DNA from: an uncultured Nitrososphaerales archaeon
GTDB taxonomy: Archaea; Thermoproteota; Nitrososphaeria; Nitrososphaerales; Nitrososphaeraceae
DNA length: 64,000 nucleotides
Assembly (NCBI GenBank): GCA_963695855.1
Contig: CAVOHZ010000010.1
Span: 160,001 to 224,000, forward strand
Direction: 5' to 3'
In this document: positions 4,578 to 11,898 of the stretch, piece by piece
Layout: every line of letters starts with the position of its first letter
Position numbering within the stretch: the stretch's first letter is position 1
Notes under the pieces: generated by a model
What the model saw: only the letters and a program-made list of their open reading frames with translations
The model's database searches: none
What the model was told of the DNA's origin: nothing
Position numbers and translations under genes: made by a program

Positions 4578-6149
4578 CTAGGGATAGGGAATTGGCAATA
4601 TGAATGGTACTTGTGATGTCGGATTTATTGGTGACTCAGTAGAAGGACGTTGTTCATTAGCAGAACTTAATATTCTAGTATCTTGTTGTTGTTGTTCTTG
4701 TTGTTGTTTTAATTGTTGTTGTTCTTGTTGTTGTTTTAATTGTTGTTGTTGCTTTAGTTTTTGTTGTAGGTGTAATTGTTTAAATTGTTGTTGTTCTTGT
4801 TGTTGTTTCAATTGTTGTTGTTGTTTTAGTTTTTGTTGTAGGTGTAATTGTTTAAATTGTTGTTGTTCTTGTTGTTGTTTTACAGGTTGTTCTTGTTGTT
4901 TTTGTTGCATTATTGCACTACCAGAATTCAATAGTCTAGTATCTTTTTGTTGTTGTTGTTGTTCTTGTTGTTGTTTCAATTGTTGTTGTTGTTTTAGTTT
5001 TTGTTGTAGGTGTAATTGTTTAAATTGTTGTTGTTCTTGTTGTTGTTTTACAGGTTGTTCTTGTTGTTTTTGTTGCATTATTGCACTACCAGAATTCAAT
5101 AGTCTAGTATCTTTTTGTTGTTGTTGTTCTTGTTGTTGTTTTACAGGTTGTTCTTGTTGTTTTTGTTGCATTATTGCACTACCAGAATTCAATAGTCTAG
5201 TATCTTTTTGTTGTTGTTGTTCTTGTTGTTGTTTTACAGGTTGTTCTTGTTGTTTTTGTTGCATTATTGCACTACCAGAATTCAATAGTCTAGTATCTTT
5301 TTGTTGTTGTTGTTGTTCTTGTTGTTGTTTTAATTGTTGTTGTTGTTTTATTTTTTCTTGTAGTTGTTGTAGAGGTTGTTCTTGTTGTTGTTTTAATTGT
5401 TGTTGTTGTTTTATTTTTTCTTGTAGTTGTTGTAGAGGTTGTTCTTGTTGTTGTTGCATTACTGCTGAAGTACTATCTGTAGATTTTATATCAGATTGAC
5501 TTACTTCTTTTGCATCATTAGTTACATCAGCACTGTCATTGCCAAGTACTTCTGTTGTATTAATATTGTCATTTGTGAAAGTCTCTGAATCAGTATCGTG
5601 GGATGGACTAAGATAGTGGTTCTCATTATTACATTTAACTATTATTTTTGTGTCTGATCCTAAATAGTATACTTGAGTATTTCCAGGATTGCTATTGAAT
5701 TCTTCAGATGAAATTAATTGCGTAGCCTCATCATTAGCCTTTTTTAAAGCTAATGCATTATCTAAAATAGGTTTAATGGTATCAATATCTTCTATTCCAT
5801 CAGCATTGATATTTCGATTGTTGCAGTTTACTATTTTTACTATTTTTACCTTTTTAATTGGTTTATCGTAATCTTCTTCATATTTTGTGTATGAACCATA
5901 TTTGTCTGATTCTTCCATGTAATCATCATATTTCTCTTTATCTTTTCCTTCATGTTTTTTATAATCTATACTAGAATCATAGCCATAATCATCATATCGT
6001 TTTTCTTTGTATTTTCCATCATCTCTTTCCTGATACTTATCCTTTTCTTCCTTGGCATCTGCGTCAATAACTGATATTGATGCTGTCGTAATAGTGCCAG
6101 TCAATAAGATCGCTATTAAAAGTACGGTAGTAAACGTCGACTTTTGCAT
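4578..6149 (-). CDS. Secreted Gln-rich repetitive protein, two-Cys family member
   Basis: Probable start MQKST at 6149 (ORF is open to 6191); signal peptide, D/K/E/Y-rich segment, VNCNNRNIN...VKCNNEN core, about 260 aa of Q-rich repeats, C-terminal PFILPIPYP. Confidence 0.8.
   Translation of the reverse strand: MQKSTFTTVLLIAILLTGTITTASISVIDADAKEEKDKYQERDDGKYKEKRYDDYGYDSSIDYKKHEGKDKEKYDDYMEESDKYGSYTKYEEDYDKPIKKVKIVKIVNCNNRNINADGIEDIDTIKPILDNALALKKANDEATQLISSEEFNSNPGNTQVYYLGSDTKIIVKCNNENHYLSPSHDTDSETFTNDNINTTEVLGNDSADVTNDAKEVSQSDIKSTDSTSAVMQQQQEQPLQQLQEKIKQQQQLKQQQEQPLQQLQEKIKQQQQLKQQQEQQQQQKDTRLLNSGSAIMQQKQQEQPVKQQQEQQQQKDTRLLNSGSAIMQQKQQEQPVKQQQEQQQQKDTRLLNSGSAIMQQKQQEQPVKQQQEQQQFKQLHLQQKLKQQQQLKQQQEQQQQQKDTRLLNSGSAIMQQKQQEQPVKQQQEQQQFKQLHLQQKLKQQQQLKQQQEQQQFKQLHLQQKLKQQQQLKQQQEQQQLKQQQEQQQQDTRILSSANEQRPSTESPINPTSQVPFILPIPYP
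4681..5460 (-). repeat. Composite CAA-rich coding tandem repeat
   Basis: Near-identical DNA modules: DTRLLNSGSAIMQQKQQEQPVKQQQEQQQ x4, FKQLHLQQKLKQQQQLKQQQEQQQ x3, QPLQQLQEKIKQQQQLKQQQ x2. Confidence 0.95.
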
Positions 6150-7344
6150 ATTGACAGTAGGATTATCACATTTATTTAGAGTGTGCATCATTGTAATATT
6201 ATTTTACTCTATTTCTTGCCATCAGTTAATTGTTATTATTTATTGTTTCAAGATTATGATGAATAACAATCTTTATTTTAAAGCATAATTTTTAAAATAA
6301 TACTGTTAGAAAGGTTTTTTTGGCCCTGTTAACTTAAGGATTAAAGTAGTTCTACATTCTACTTTTCTATTATGTTCTGTGCTCAATTTTTCATAGGTTT
6401 TTCGATTTATTTAATTAACTTTCCTTAAATCAACATCCATGAAAATCTATCTGTATGCTGGTTATCTTTTTTATCCTGTTTAGCCATATTTTGTTGCGTT
6501 TTTCTATCTATTAAGCATTGTTAACAATAGCCTCCGCTATATATGGCATCCTTGTTCTCTGATGTAGTCGTATTGTTGTTTTTGTTGTCTAATTATCTTT
6601 CTTTTTCTTGAGATCCAATCTTGTTCAGTCTCTCCAGTTTCTGTTCATATCTAGTCCTGTTCATGTATCTATACGATTGGTGTCTTGTTAGCATGTACCA
6701 TATTATAACAAGCACCTCCTTTGCTGTTGCAACTATTGCTTTCCCATGTCCCTTTCTCTGTTTGATTCTTTCATAGAATGTTCTCATGTGACGGTCATGT
6801 CTTACTGCGGATAATGAACACTGTACCAGTATCCATCTCAATAGTGGTGATCCCTGTTTGGTTATTCTACCTGTTTTTGTTTTTCCAGATGATTCTCTTG
6901 TTGATGGAGATAATCCTGCATAACTAACAAGTTTCCATGGTGTTGCAAATCTTTTGATATCCACTATTTCTGTTGATATCAGCATTGCAGAAAATACGTC
7001 TATTCCTGTCATGCTGAGAAGTATCTTTACATCTTGACTATCCTTCCATGCGTATTTTGCTATCTCTTTTGATACTATTTCTATCTGGTTATCTATCGAT
7101 TCTATGGATGTTAGTGTTGTATTCAGTATTATCCTGTCTATTGGTGAAACTGAGAGTGATTTTAGCCACTCAGTTCCCGATCTACCGAATATGTCTGTCA
7201 GCTCTGTTCTGTACTCATATTTGTCTAAAATAGCATGTACCTTGTTTGCAAGTTTTGTCTTGGTTCTAGACAAGACTATTCTATGTCTGACCAGACTTCT
7301 TTTTTCTCTGAATTCCTTTCTTTACAGGTACATATGACTCGTAT

Positions 7345-8373
7345 GCTCTGTTGCATGATTCATTAATTTATTGATAATAATTCTGTGGTTGTAGTCTTTT
7401 ATGTTGTGGATATAAACAAATTGTATAATGATGCTTTCAACATTATCTCTTTTACCATGTTTGGATATTTAACAGCAGATACATATTCACCAAACATTCT
7501 CTTCATAGAGGAAAAGACAGATTCTACAACCCATCTCTTGCCATAGCTAACGCTATCCTTCCATTTATTAAAATCAGTTTTCTGTTCTACTACTCCAAGA
7601 TTTCTTTTATAGTGATTGTCATTTCTGATTCTAGCATTCTTTCTTACCTTTATTGCTGGTTTAATATTGTTGAATGAAAGAAATTGGAATATCTTGTTGT
7701 TATCGTATGAACCATCTGCTATCACAGTATTTACATCGATATTCTGTTTTCTGACTATATCATGTACGAGTATAGGTAATACTTTTGAATCATGTACTTT
7801 TTCTGTAGTAACGTTTAGAGATAGAATCTTTGCTTTCTTCTCATTCTTTTTTCTACCGCTTATATCTACTGCTACATGAATCTTGAGGTATCCTTTTCTT
7901 TTCTACTTTTACAGTGCCACTTCTTATGACGCATCCACTCTCCTCTATTTGTTACCTTTATTCCTGTAGAATCAATTGCTATAATAACATCATTACCTCC
8001 TAATTTGTTGTTGTTAACATGAATATCAAGTTTGTTTATTCTTCTATCTATTGTACTATAATCGGGAATTGATGGGATTTTATTTTCAGCATGAGCTCTT
8101 ACTATACCTTCAGTCTGCCTGAATGGAAGATGAAAATACACTCTTGCATATCCAAGTAATAAGAGAAATGAGTTGGGATAGTGATGTGGTTCTCCAACTT
8201 TACCTTTGTTCATTTCTTTCAATTCATTATCCCAATTATCTATAATATCAAATCCAAGCATAATTTCTCCACGCTTAACAAGAGATTGATTATATTGTCT
8301 CCAGTTTAACACATAATATGAATATAACAGGTTAGCTAAATAGATTAGCAGTAGTGAATCATGCAACAAACTA
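7345..8373 (-). mobile_element. IS5-family element inserted in the IS110 gene
   Basis: Target duplication gactcgta(t) at 7336-7344 and 8374-8382; terminal IRs share a perfect 14-bp core tgttgcatgattca. Confidence 0.92.
7399..8320 (-). pseudogene. IS5-family DDE transposase, frameshifted near 7893-7902
   Basis: NWRQYNQSLVKRG, IAIDSTGIK, RKGYLKIHVAVD, ADGSYD, RWVVESVFS; the frame is restored by deleting one copy of ctttt; start position approximate. Confidence 0.88.
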
Positions 8374-8749
8374 GACTCGTATACCAATCAATCCAGTTCT
8401 CAGCAGATCAGATAGTATACATGCGTCAAGTTTATCTGATTTTATCTTTGCTTGTGCTATTATCTTTGTTCTGTATGGATTTGCTAGTACTGTATCTATT
8501 CCATTATCTTCCAGCGTATCATGTATTCTCATCCACATGTTTCCTGTAGATTCCAGTACTGCATTACATTTTTTTGTTCCATGATTGTGTATCCTTTCAA
8601 TCAGTTCTAATATTCCATCAGAATTGTTACCAAAGAAGAATTCATTCAGTGTCTTGCCTTTATCATCTTTTAGTGCTGCCCTGCATTTTCTCTTTCCAAC
8701 ATCTATTCCAAGATGATTCAATTATTTTTATTCACCTTCTTTTTTTATT

Positions 8750-8874
8750 TGTTGGCTAACAGGTGGCAAACATCCATCCACCCTCGAAGGGTACTATGAT
8801 AGCCACTTCACAGATACGGTTCAGTCAGAGCCTCACTCTCATACGGAGTATGTTAATTTTGAACCTAGCCAACA
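8750..8874 (-). ncRNA. Putative IS110 bridge/seek RNA
   Basis: Outer stem tgttggcta/tagccaaca enclosing two hairpins with large internal loops; loops carry 9-nt exact matches to the insertion flank (ggctctgac) and to the element end (atggatgtt). Confidence 0.78.
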
Positions 8875-8889
8875 TACAGTAATGAAACA

Positions 8890-8906
8890 GACTAAAAGAT
8901 TTTCAT
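8890..8906 (-). promoter_or_regulatory. Candidate BRE/TATA promoter for the IS110 ncRNA and gene
   Basis: Minus strand atgaaaat-cttttagt; the TATA-like element begins about 24 nt upstream of the RNA outer stem and overlaps the subterminal IR. Confidence 0.45.
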
Positions 8907-9694
8907 ATCGTCAGAGCCCTAGAAAGACTAGTAAATTAATTTTTATATAAATAATTATTTCTCTTAATAAAATAAATTTGACTAGATGGCTATAACGGCC
9001 AACATATGCATGGATAATATAATGATATAGATTTTGAAAGATATCAAAGGTAGAAATAGTCTCAGATTATATGGTATATTTAATGGATAAAGGATGTGTA
9101 CTTTGTATTTTTAAACTGTGATCTTTTACTAACTTTGCAAAATTTATTTATTTATGAGAAGTGATCATAATATACAGTTCAAAAAAGGGTTTTGATAAAA
9201 ATTGATTAGAATCCAAGATTATTACTATTTTGAAATCAATTCATTATTATCTCATCATTCATAGTTAATATAATGAAAAAGAACAGGATAACATGATCTT
9301 TCTGGATATAATGTATATATAATATTTATATATCGAACCAAAAAATTTGTATAAATATTATTGTTAGAACAAAAAGATGAGATTACAGCAAGACAAATAT
9401 CCTCTATGACTACTAGATCACTTTTAAAAATTGAGATACATTACATCATATTTATTTTTCTCTATCCTTATTGTGTACCCATTTTGACGTAATAAATATT
9501 GTTTTAATGTGTGTACGCTATGTAATTTGAATACCAGAAAGTATAAGACAATAAATTTTTCAACCTATTCCAAAATTAGTAGCTTAATAAATAATTACTA
9601 CTAACTTGATAATAAAACTATGGAATATAAAAAAAGAAAAAAGAAAGATCCCTTCATAGTTCAATAATATTCTTTAGCCTACAGCCATTCCCGT

Positions 9695-11827: not shown

Positions 11828-11898
11828 GGCCCTGTTAAGTTATGGATAAAGTAATAGATATGTTCTACTTTTTTTATATTATGTTCTGTGCTCAATTT
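11828..11898. mobile_element. Second copy of the IS6-like miniature element end
   Basis: ggccctgttaagttatgg...ttctactttt...tattatgttctgtgctcaattt, homologous to 6322-6389. Confidence 0.7.

Follow-up and report, generated by a model that had tools for sequence, protein, structure and literature searches.

Introduction

Bridge recombination has so far been characterized in bacterial elements, chiefly the insertion sequence (IS) IS621 and a few members of the IS1111 and IS110 groups, as far as the available portions of the cited reports extend; our descriptions of published elements are drawn from the same portions. In each IS621 loop, the 5' guide matches the left side and the core as they read on the top (gene) strand, the 3' guide complements that strand over the core and the right side, and the 3' ends of all guides point toward the core (PMC11208158). 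After strand exchange, the two bases that follow each loop's right-hand guide on its 3' side pair with the other DNA (PMC11208158; PMC13626964). Here we analyze an element on the minus strand of a 64,000-nucleotide stretch (the window; contig CAVOHZ010000010.1, positions 160,001 to 224,000) of an uncultured Nitrososphaerales archaeon. The element at 6436-8911 is very probably a degenerate copy of a DEDD element of the IS110/IS1111 family whose left end encodes a bispecific bridge (seek) RNA of about 129 nt, and its mechanism would follow by homology. Across 100 aligned copies, all four halves of the two proposed RNA loops track the DNA of the copy that carries them, namely its left and right flanks and its right and left ends.

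The two groups of the family differ in their ends, their repeats, and the place of the RNA. IS110 elements have a long left end, 2-3-bp repeats, and the RNA in the left end, whereas IS1111 elements have a long right end, 7-17-bp repeats, and the RNA in the right end; Durrant et al. suggest that the RNA shifted between the ends during evolution (PMC11208160). IS1111 members carry subterminal repeats and usually a downstream non-coding region, with the exceptions of ISMtsp17, in which this region is upstream, and ISHvo10 and ISAcp5, in which both sides have long non-coding regions (PMC11187229). In IS1111 seekRNAs the match to the top strand precedes, on the 5' side, the match to the bottom strand; in ISEc21, which belongs to IS110, the order is the opposite (PMC11187229). 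Archaeal IS110 recombinases have already been catalogued as proteins (n = 662; bioRxiv 10.1101/2024.06.21.599552). We found no paper on archaeal IS110 RNAs in the open literature; Supplementary Fig. 2 of Siddiquee et al. and Supplementary Table 5 of Durrant et al. may list some.

Results

Ends of the element, the TG core, and the target

The genome of the host, a soil archaeon, contains both an archaeal small-subunit rRNA and an archaeal AmoA gene, and the host is therefore an ammonia oxidiser. The same genome holds four further full-length copies of the element that lack the nested insertion described below, several short derivatives, and fragments. Comparison with these four uninterrupted copies and with copies in relatives delimited the following features, all on the minus strand.

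6436-8911, minus strand: IS110/IS1111-type element, 2,476 bp (about 1,438 bp without the nested insertion)
8914-8918, minus strand: left target half GGCTC, with which the interrupted terminal repeat of a miniature inverted-repeat transposable element (MITE) begins; conservation among copies starts here and the flanks upstream differ
8912-8913, minus strand: TG core on the left; the left subterminal repeat was located in 94 copies, and TG stands just before the element in 77 of them
8897-8911, minus strand: left end, with ACGAT (8907-8911) ahead of the subterminal inverted repeat ATGAAAATCT (8897-8906)
6436-6448, minus strand: right end, subterminal repeat AGATTTTCAT (6439-6448) followed by GGA (6436-6438)
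6434-6435, minus strand: TG core on the right; among the 100 copies, the right repeat was located with at most one mismatch in 51, and in 42 of these TG comes directly after the right end
6322-6433, minus strand: rest of the interrupted MITE, with the right target half TTGATTT at 6427-6433 and the end of the far terminal repeat at 6322

On the left side of all copies in this genome, similarity begins at GGCTCTG and continues with AC(G/T)ATATGAAAATC, and the DNA upstream is unrelated; on the right side the copies read ...GATTTTCAT(G/A)GATG, then TTAA(G/C/T)TTAAGG. The copies have AC after GGCTCTG and the empty targets have TT; AC is therefore assigned to the element, as its first dinucleotide, and TT to the target, as the first bases of the right flank, which places the insertion point between GGCTCTG and TTAAG. 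Donor junction and target have no letters but TG in common, and TG is thus the predicted crossover core. In this the element follows the IS110 family, whose members insert site-specifically and whose donor junction shares no more than a short core with the target.

An earlier note, made from the window alone, had placed the ends at 8909 and 6432, and comparison with the other copies moves them to 8911 and 6436. Its 10-bp subterminal inverted repeats stand at 8897-8906 and 6439-6448, and their spacing from the ends, given there as 3 and 7 nt, becomes 5 nt on the left and 3 nt on the right.

The DNA to the right of the element is a repeat, a MITE of about 117-125 bp whose intact copies start with GGCTCTGTTAAGTTAAGGA and end with its inverted repeat. 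Uninterrupted target repeats in the genome read GGCTCTG-TTAAGTTAAGG; uninterrupted MITE ends read GGCTCTGTTAAG, and empty MITE ends read GGCTCTGTTAAGTTAAGG. At three mismatches or fewer, the genome contains 67 19-mers resembling the MITE terminal repeat, the match at 6322 among them. We conclude from these comparisons that the target is the terminal inverted repeat of the ~117-bp MITE (GGCTC-TG-TTAAGTT). The flank matches noted earlier are present; that the flanks are a MITE end had gone unseen.

Other copies of the MITE terminal repeat lie in the window at 11828, 13039, and 13771. Natural variants of the first five bases of the MITE (GGTGC, GGTCC, GGCCC, GGCTG) correspond to variant bridge-RNA guides. 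Adjoining the MITE, at 4578-6191 on the minus strand, is an open reading frame (ORF) of 537 amino acids with an N-terminal hydrophobic segment and a long, highly repetitive Q/E/K-rich region built of units like QQQEQPLQQLQEKIKQQQQLK.

A conserved, predicted two-hairpin RNA in the left end

The left non-coding end, directly before the recombinase gene, contains the predicted RNA and its guides.

8750-8878, minus strand: putative bridge RNA gene, 129 nt; an outer stem of 8866-8874 with 8750-8758 encloses two hairpins with internal loops
8818-8865, minus strand: target-binding hairpin 1, which covaries with the left and right flanks
8851-8859, minus strand: target 5' guide, AAAAUUAAC-A, predicted to pair with the top strand of TG plus TTGATTT
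8824-8832, minus strand: target 3' guide, GGCUC-UG-AC, equal to left flank, core, and the first two nt of the element
8763-8806, minus strand: donor-binding hairpin 2, which covaries with the right and left ends
8793-8801, minus strand: donor 5' guide, whose first four nt, UAUC (8798-8801), are predicted to pair with left-end positions 3-6 (GATA)
8769-8777, minus strand: donor 3' guide, AUGGA-UG-UU, equal to right end, core, and the first two nt of the right flank

Folded as the minus strand, 8750-8878 has a minimum-free-energy structure (-41.2 kcal/mol, z -2.34; 3 of 200 shuffled sequences folded as well) with the outer stem and both hairpins, so that the structure read earlier at 8750-8874 is also the optimal one. 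Among 17 close copies from six genomes, the proposed pairs are kept (93.7% of cells paired), with compensatory changes at 4 of 30 pairs; with slid partners, at most 40% were paired. The RNAalifold consensus independently recovered the outer stem, the outer stem of hairpin 1, and both stems of hairpin 2. For the inner stem of hairpin 1, which had been drawn as CAUAC with GUAUG, RNAalifold prefers UACUCC with GAGAGUG, leaving CA free to pair with the core; neither candidate showed covariation.

A covariance model built from this fold (R1) was scanned against 151 genomes of the same archaeal family. It gave 128 matches in 33 of the genomes, spread over 8 of 18 genera, and recovered the window locus; one match, in an unpublished genome (G081), was left out of the later analysis. 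The two-loop fold proposed earlier is therefore kept in homologous Nitrososphaeraceae copies. When 100 of the matches were aligned, the 94 distinct rows showed compensatory changes at 28 of the 30 pairs (0 of 500 shuffles as high), in an alignment that was fitted to R1 and is hence biased toward the structure. With its filters off, the model also matched the regions upstream of recombinases with 39-47% identity (L025, E 7e-9; L048, E 0.003; L028, E 0.011). It had no significant match in the Natrinema and Rhizobium relatives described below (best E 1.4) and none in the ~160-nt non-coding right end of the element, and an Rfam scan of 6000-9400 at E up to 10 returned no bridge-RNA family and three chance-level matches.

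The sense strand was assigned from the orientation of the gene in homologous systems and from the guides, as only with the RNA read in the gene sense do all four point 3' toward the core, the polarity that the earlier note had described.

The right non-coding end (about 6449-6560 in the window, and in homologues) carries a small palindromic hairpin (ATAGC-4 nt-GCTAT) and a block of about 60 nt beside the subterminal repeat; full-length and ~330-bp copies have kept both. Possible roles are a promoter that reads across the circle junction and a binding site for a protein.

Loop halves covary with flanks and element ends

For the 100 aligned copies, the four loop segments were taken by alignment column and the junctions from the flanking DNA. 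As the copies are related, the shuffle counts given here overstate independence, which weighs against the proposed RNA.

In the window, GGCTCTGAC, the match between hairpin 1 and the left flank, occurs only at 8824-8832 and 8910-8918, the two places given in the earlier note (2 occurrences against 0.11 expected; 0 of 100 shuffles reach 2). ATGGATGTT, the corresponding match in hairpin 2, is present at 8769-8777 and 6432-6440 and at two unrelated places (4 against 1.2 expected; 1 of 100 shuffles reaches 4). Taken alone, this second match is weak.

The left flank agreed with the target 3' guide at 5 of 5 positions in 40 of 77 copies, at 4 of 5 in 20, and at fewer in 17. Thirty copies have a target guide other than GGCUC, and in 12 of these (8 distinct guides, 9 genomes) the flank matches the changed guide 5/5, including sites unlike the MITE end (AGTTG, AGTTA, AGTCC, TTATT). 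Over 39 distinct pairs the mean identity was 3.6, against 2.8 after shuffling (0 of 10,000 shuffles as high). On the other side of the target site, 19 of 41 copies had a right flank complementary to the target 5' guide at all seven positions, with three states (G/C, C/G, and A/T at position 5), and 53 of 10,000 shuffles were as high. In the window copy, the right flank at 6427-6434 pairs with the loop at 8851-8859 over 7-8 nt (7/7 positions, one of them G.U). Right-flank complementarity had been noticed earlier over TTAA only; the complementarity holds, and its extent is this longer pairing.

In the donor loop, the right junction matched the 3' guide 9/9 in 32 of 42 copies, again with three states; position -3 of the junction and the guide were G/G in 27 copies, A/A in 12, and discordant in 3. 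In 56 of 75 copies, left-end positions 3-6 were fully complementary (4/4) to the donor 5' guide (0 of 10,000 shuffles as high). Four states of this guide cover the five commonest left-end types, the commonest pairings being UAUC/GATA, UAUA/TATA, UGUC/GACA, and UGUA/TACA. The covariation thus supports UAUC (8798-8801) with GATA rather than the register, tcata, previously proposed.

Loops for both target and donor are in this way recognizable at the level of DNA sequence, as the IS110 family would require. All four segments covary, and together with the 12 retargeted copies they bear out the central claim of the earlier note, that this is an IS110-family bispecific bridge RNA in which hairpin 1 reads the target and hairpin 2 the element ends.

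Each of the 9-nt long guides consists of 5 nt of flank or end, TG, and 2 nt of the partner DNA, and both cover the core, which they had seemed not to reach. The extra 2 nt of the target loop, AC, are those that begin the element; those of the donor loop, UU, begin the right flank. Among 42 copies the donor-loop pair was TT/TT in 35, TA/TA in 4 (two genomes), and discordant in 3. These data suggest that the last 2 nt of the long guides are handshake-like guides.

Counter-evidence and alternative explanations

Besides the relatedness of the copies, several observations weigh against the RNA proposed here. The single-sequence fold only modestly beats shuffled sequences (z -2.3), and the antisense strand folds about equally (-39.6 kcal/mol, z -4.1). 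Counts of G.U versus A.C do not favour the sense strand, either in all rows (143 versus 180) or in the 43 distinct best rows (16 versus 70); they mainly reflect systematic mismatches at the ends of helices and copies that have decayed. The soil metatranscriptome matches are assembled contigs only, from relatives 90-95% alike, that span left end and gene and may be DNA; in one 927-nt contig, the match ends at 8918. The AC of the target loop never covaries with the first two bases of the element (AC/AC being the sole matched state, in 62 of 77 copies), and in a paralogue described below the donor handshake TT mismatches its flanks (CC, CA). Among 25 distinct pairs with non-consensus target guides, 12 have a flank nearer to the consensus guide than to their own. 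Such guides, mostly in low-scoring copies, were taken as mutated after insertion, which would be expected of decay and is no proof. Finally, the window copy by itself is unable to make a recombinase.

The alternative that survives best is that the hairpins act as single-stranded DNA bound by the recombinase, with guides pairing to the cleavage sites as in IS200/IS605-type elements. Covariation of loops with DNA cannot separate an RNA from single-stranded DNA of the same strand, the G.U and A.C counts carry no RNA-strand signal, and the transcript contigs are possibly DNA. We nevertheless regard this as very unlikely, since the protein is a DEDD/Transposase_20 recombinase homologous to that of IS621, the guide in the IS110 family is an RNA that copurifies with the enzyme (PMC11187229, PMC11208158), and the two-loop geometry with four guides and a 2-nt handshake position matches that RNA.

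A regulator of the recombinase mRNA in its 5' untranslated region, with the 9-nt matches arising from a constant repeat site, would account for the position of the structure directly before a Shine-Dalgarno-like GGTGA and a TTG start codon, and most copies do have the consensus GGCTC in both flank and guide. It is already contradicted by the retargeted copies, in which changed guides in nine genomes accompany perfectly matching changed flanks, sites outside the MITE among them. The donor loop moreover covaries with the element's own ends, and the ~330-bp derivatives keep the RNA without any gene to regulate; we give this explanation even less credit than the preceding one.

The anatomy first proposed, with a duplicated GAT core at 8907-8909 and 6429-6431, ends at 8909 and 6432, and guides that stop short of the core, is the least credible of all, because GAT flanks the element in this one copy but other copies read AC(G/T)AT on the left and TTAA(G/C/T) on the right and hence have no GAT repeat, the empty target has TT rather than AC after GGCTCTG, and TG stands at most left and right junctions. 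In the window, the left GAT is part of the element's ACGAT and the right GAT part of a variant MITE end, TTGATTTAAGG; on these comparisons their agreement is a coincidence of this copy.

A bispecific bridge RNA thus remains the favoured reading. The anatomy, boundaries, target, fold, and guide-DNA covariation were computed here, and we infer the RNA nature of the molecule, its production, and the chemistry.

Recombinase gene and nested insertion

The recombinase gene of the window copy is split into the following parts.

8383-8721, minus strand: N-terminal recombinase fragment, residues 1-113 of the intact 356-amino acid protein
7345-8373, minus strand: nested IS5-like insertion, 1,029 bp, which splits the gene and is flanked by a 9-bp duplication, ATACGAGTC, at 8374-8382 and 7336-7344
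6608-7336, minus strand: C-terminal recombinase fragment, residues 114-356, with one in-frame TAA

Both halves match an intact 356-amino acid homologue in the same genome (L003:1714-2784), in which the domains of the IS110 family, Pfam DEDD_Tnp_IS110 (E 1.5e-21) and Transposase_20 (E 2.9e-22), were found. This homologue aligns remotely to the solved recombinases of IS621 (E 6e-9) and ISCro4 (E 9e-9). In a pairwise HMMER alignment, its GID, EStG, SDKLDA, and RESSG stand opposite GID, EATG, TDTVDA, and YESGS of IS621. With its recombinase split by the nested insertion and a stop codon, the window copy is, as judged from its sequence, dead. Repairing the recombinase for a recombination assay, as had been proposed, is unneeded because intact copies, such as that at G000:C10:929318-930828, are present in the same genome.

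The ORFs of the nested insertion match DDE_Tnp_1_5 and DDE_Tnp_1 and themselves lie in two frames. About 30 copies of this IS5-like element are scattered through the genome at ~70% identity.

Short derivatives without a gene

Both ends could be mapped in 41 copies. Seventeen are full length (1,393-1,443 bp, with one outlier of 1,210 bp) and 24 are only 296-353 bp long; the short copies keep the RNA-bearing left end and about 150 nt of the right end and have no gene. Three short copies at different sites in this genome are 99.7-100% identical and have therefore moved recently. The ends of the short copies read ACTAT... and ...ATAGA, versus ACGAT... and ...ATGGA in the full-length copies of the same genome, and their own donor loops carry the matching changes, AUAGA with ...ATAGA and UAUA with ACTATA. 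In one short copy (L012), a retargeted target loop matches the flank. The simplest reading of these sequences is that the short derivatives use their own RNA and borrow the recombinase. Our search of the open literature, supplementary files excluded, found no description of gene-less or MITE-like bridge-RNA elements.

The ~330-bp derivatives include L006-L009 (G000:C10:1354501, C10:1746459, C8:114019, and C10:1407610). Another short copy, L010 (G000:C3:465558), has a 23-nt internal tandem duplication of the 3' guide region of its target loop.

Paralogues and relatives

A paralogue family in the same genome, with 42% amino acid identity and two identical copies, has the same two-hairpin upstream region and a TG core. 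The 3' target guide of this family, TTGTTGAAT, is identical to its own left junction, and the donor guide, ATAGATG, to its own right end followed by TG. The two copies (G000:C10:287645-288700, plus strand, and 289954-291009, minus strand) lie in opposite orientation about 1.25 kb apart, which looks like a composite arrangement. A second DEDD element, with 36% identity, is present in three near-identical copies (G000:C10:140732-141742, 267178-268188, and 1598725-1599735); its short left end starts with GGCTCTG and about 390 nt of non-coding DNA follow the gene, an IS1111-like layout.

Among plasmid-borne sequences, the nearest relatives are an element of the haloarchaeon Natrinema (40% identity) and elements of Rhizobium (37%), and the best plasmid matches are annotated only as "IS110 family transposase." A Klebsiella plasmid match (H29), considered as an IS1111 reference, carried no annotation and was set aside. 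The Natrinema element (Natrinema gelatinilyticum plasmid NZ_CP100757.1, 542538-544915; L141), whose 40% is amino acid identity, occurs at 7 places in that record. Inspected by eye, it has a 14-bp subterminal repeat, an upstream outer stem of 13 nt, and TG at both inferred junctions, and each of its 3' guides, for the left and for the right junction as inferred, matches at 8 of 9 positions, in a reading of a single copy whose boundaries were set by analogy.

Discussion

By homology with IS621 and ISEc11, the element would excise as a circle with the junction ...CATGGA-TG-ACGAT..., and the RNA-bound recombinase would pair the donor loop with this junction. The donor 3' guide AUGGA-UG would pair with the bottom strand of the right end and core, and the donor 5' guide UAUC with the top strand at left-end positions 3-6. 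The target loop would pair with the MITE terminal repeat, its 3' guide GGCUC-UG with the bottom strand of the left half and core and its 5' guide AAANUUAA-CA with the top strand of the core and right half. Strand exchange would take place at the common TG, and the extra 3' nucleotides of the long guides (AC, UU) would pair only after it, like the IS621 handshake guides. A promoter, RNA processing, and the chemistry at TG are likewise presumed by analogy.

If borne out, this archaeal system offers a compact recombinase of 356 amino acids with an RNA of 129 nt, and about 100 copies from which rules for the guides can be read: 5 nt plus TG to one side, 7-8 nt with the core to the other, and a handshake of 2 nt. 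It also presents natural retargeting events, a mobile element for which the end of another one, a MITE, would serve as a safe landing site, and gene-less derivatives that carry their own guide RNA. The known principle is unchanged; its range is widened and testable material is added.

It is possible, at somewhat less than even chance, that the combination of an upstream RNA, IS1111 guide order, and long repeats reflects relocation of the RNA and inversion of its polarity as separate steps, and that the ~330-bp elements are "self-guided" MITEs served by a recombinase in trans. Such MITEs would be non-autonomous elements defined by an RNA and not by protein-binding ends.

The system resembles IS621 in having a DEDD recombinase with RuvC-like and Tnp domains, a left-end RNA upstream of the gene, and target and donor internal loops, each with two guides to opposite strands whose 3' ends are directed toward a 2-nt core. 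It also shares with IS621 a 2-nt extension 3' of one guide per loop that matches the partner DNA, and a discontinuous guide for the start of the left end. It differs from IS621 in the order of the guides within each loop, which is reversed with respect to the gene strand, in its core (TG, or CA on the other strand, versus CT), in its 10-bp rather than 2-3-bp subterminal inverted repeats, in the remote similarity of the proteins (E 6e-9), and in its archaeal host.

Like ISEc11, ISKpn4, and ISPa11 of the IS1111 group (Siddiquee et al. 2024), it has the top-strand match 5' of the bottom-strand match, an agreement that assumes that "top strand" in that paper means the strand of the transposase gene. 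With IS1111 it further shares subterminal inverted repeats within the 7-17-bp range and site-specific insertion into a repeated sequence; it departs from that group in that its RNA is upstream and not downstream of the gene. ISMtsp17, ISHvo10, and ISAcp5, compared by description only, similarly combine subterminal repeats with a non-coding region upstream or on both sides of the gene. In the window element the non-coding regions are about 190 nt on the left and 160 nt on the right, and the Natrinema relative has the same layout. Elements known to us from the title of a paper likewise target the terminal inverted repeat of another mobile element, which here is an archaeal MITE of ~117 bp.

Measured against the two groups, the element thus has the upstream left-end RNA of IS110 without its 2-3-bp repeats (ATGAAAATCT and AGATTTTCAT being 10 bp) or its guide order (bottom-strand/left guide 5' of top-strand/right guide), and it has the repeat length and the top-strand-first order of IS1111 without the downstream RNA. 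If the antisense strand is named "top," the predicted layout becomes exactly that of IS621, handshake position included, and, compared with IS621, the module of RNA and gene would be inverted with respect to the polarity of the crossover. The outline of the earlier note is retained, including its mixed layout, and its core, its ends, and one guide register are replaced. On the sequence comparisons made here, we regard this as a real bridge/seek-RNA element, of a kind already known but here in an archaeon, with an unusual layout that joins the upstream RNA of the IS110/IS621 type to the 10-bp subterminal repeats and guide order of the IS1111 type, features otherwise used to part IS110 from IS1111.

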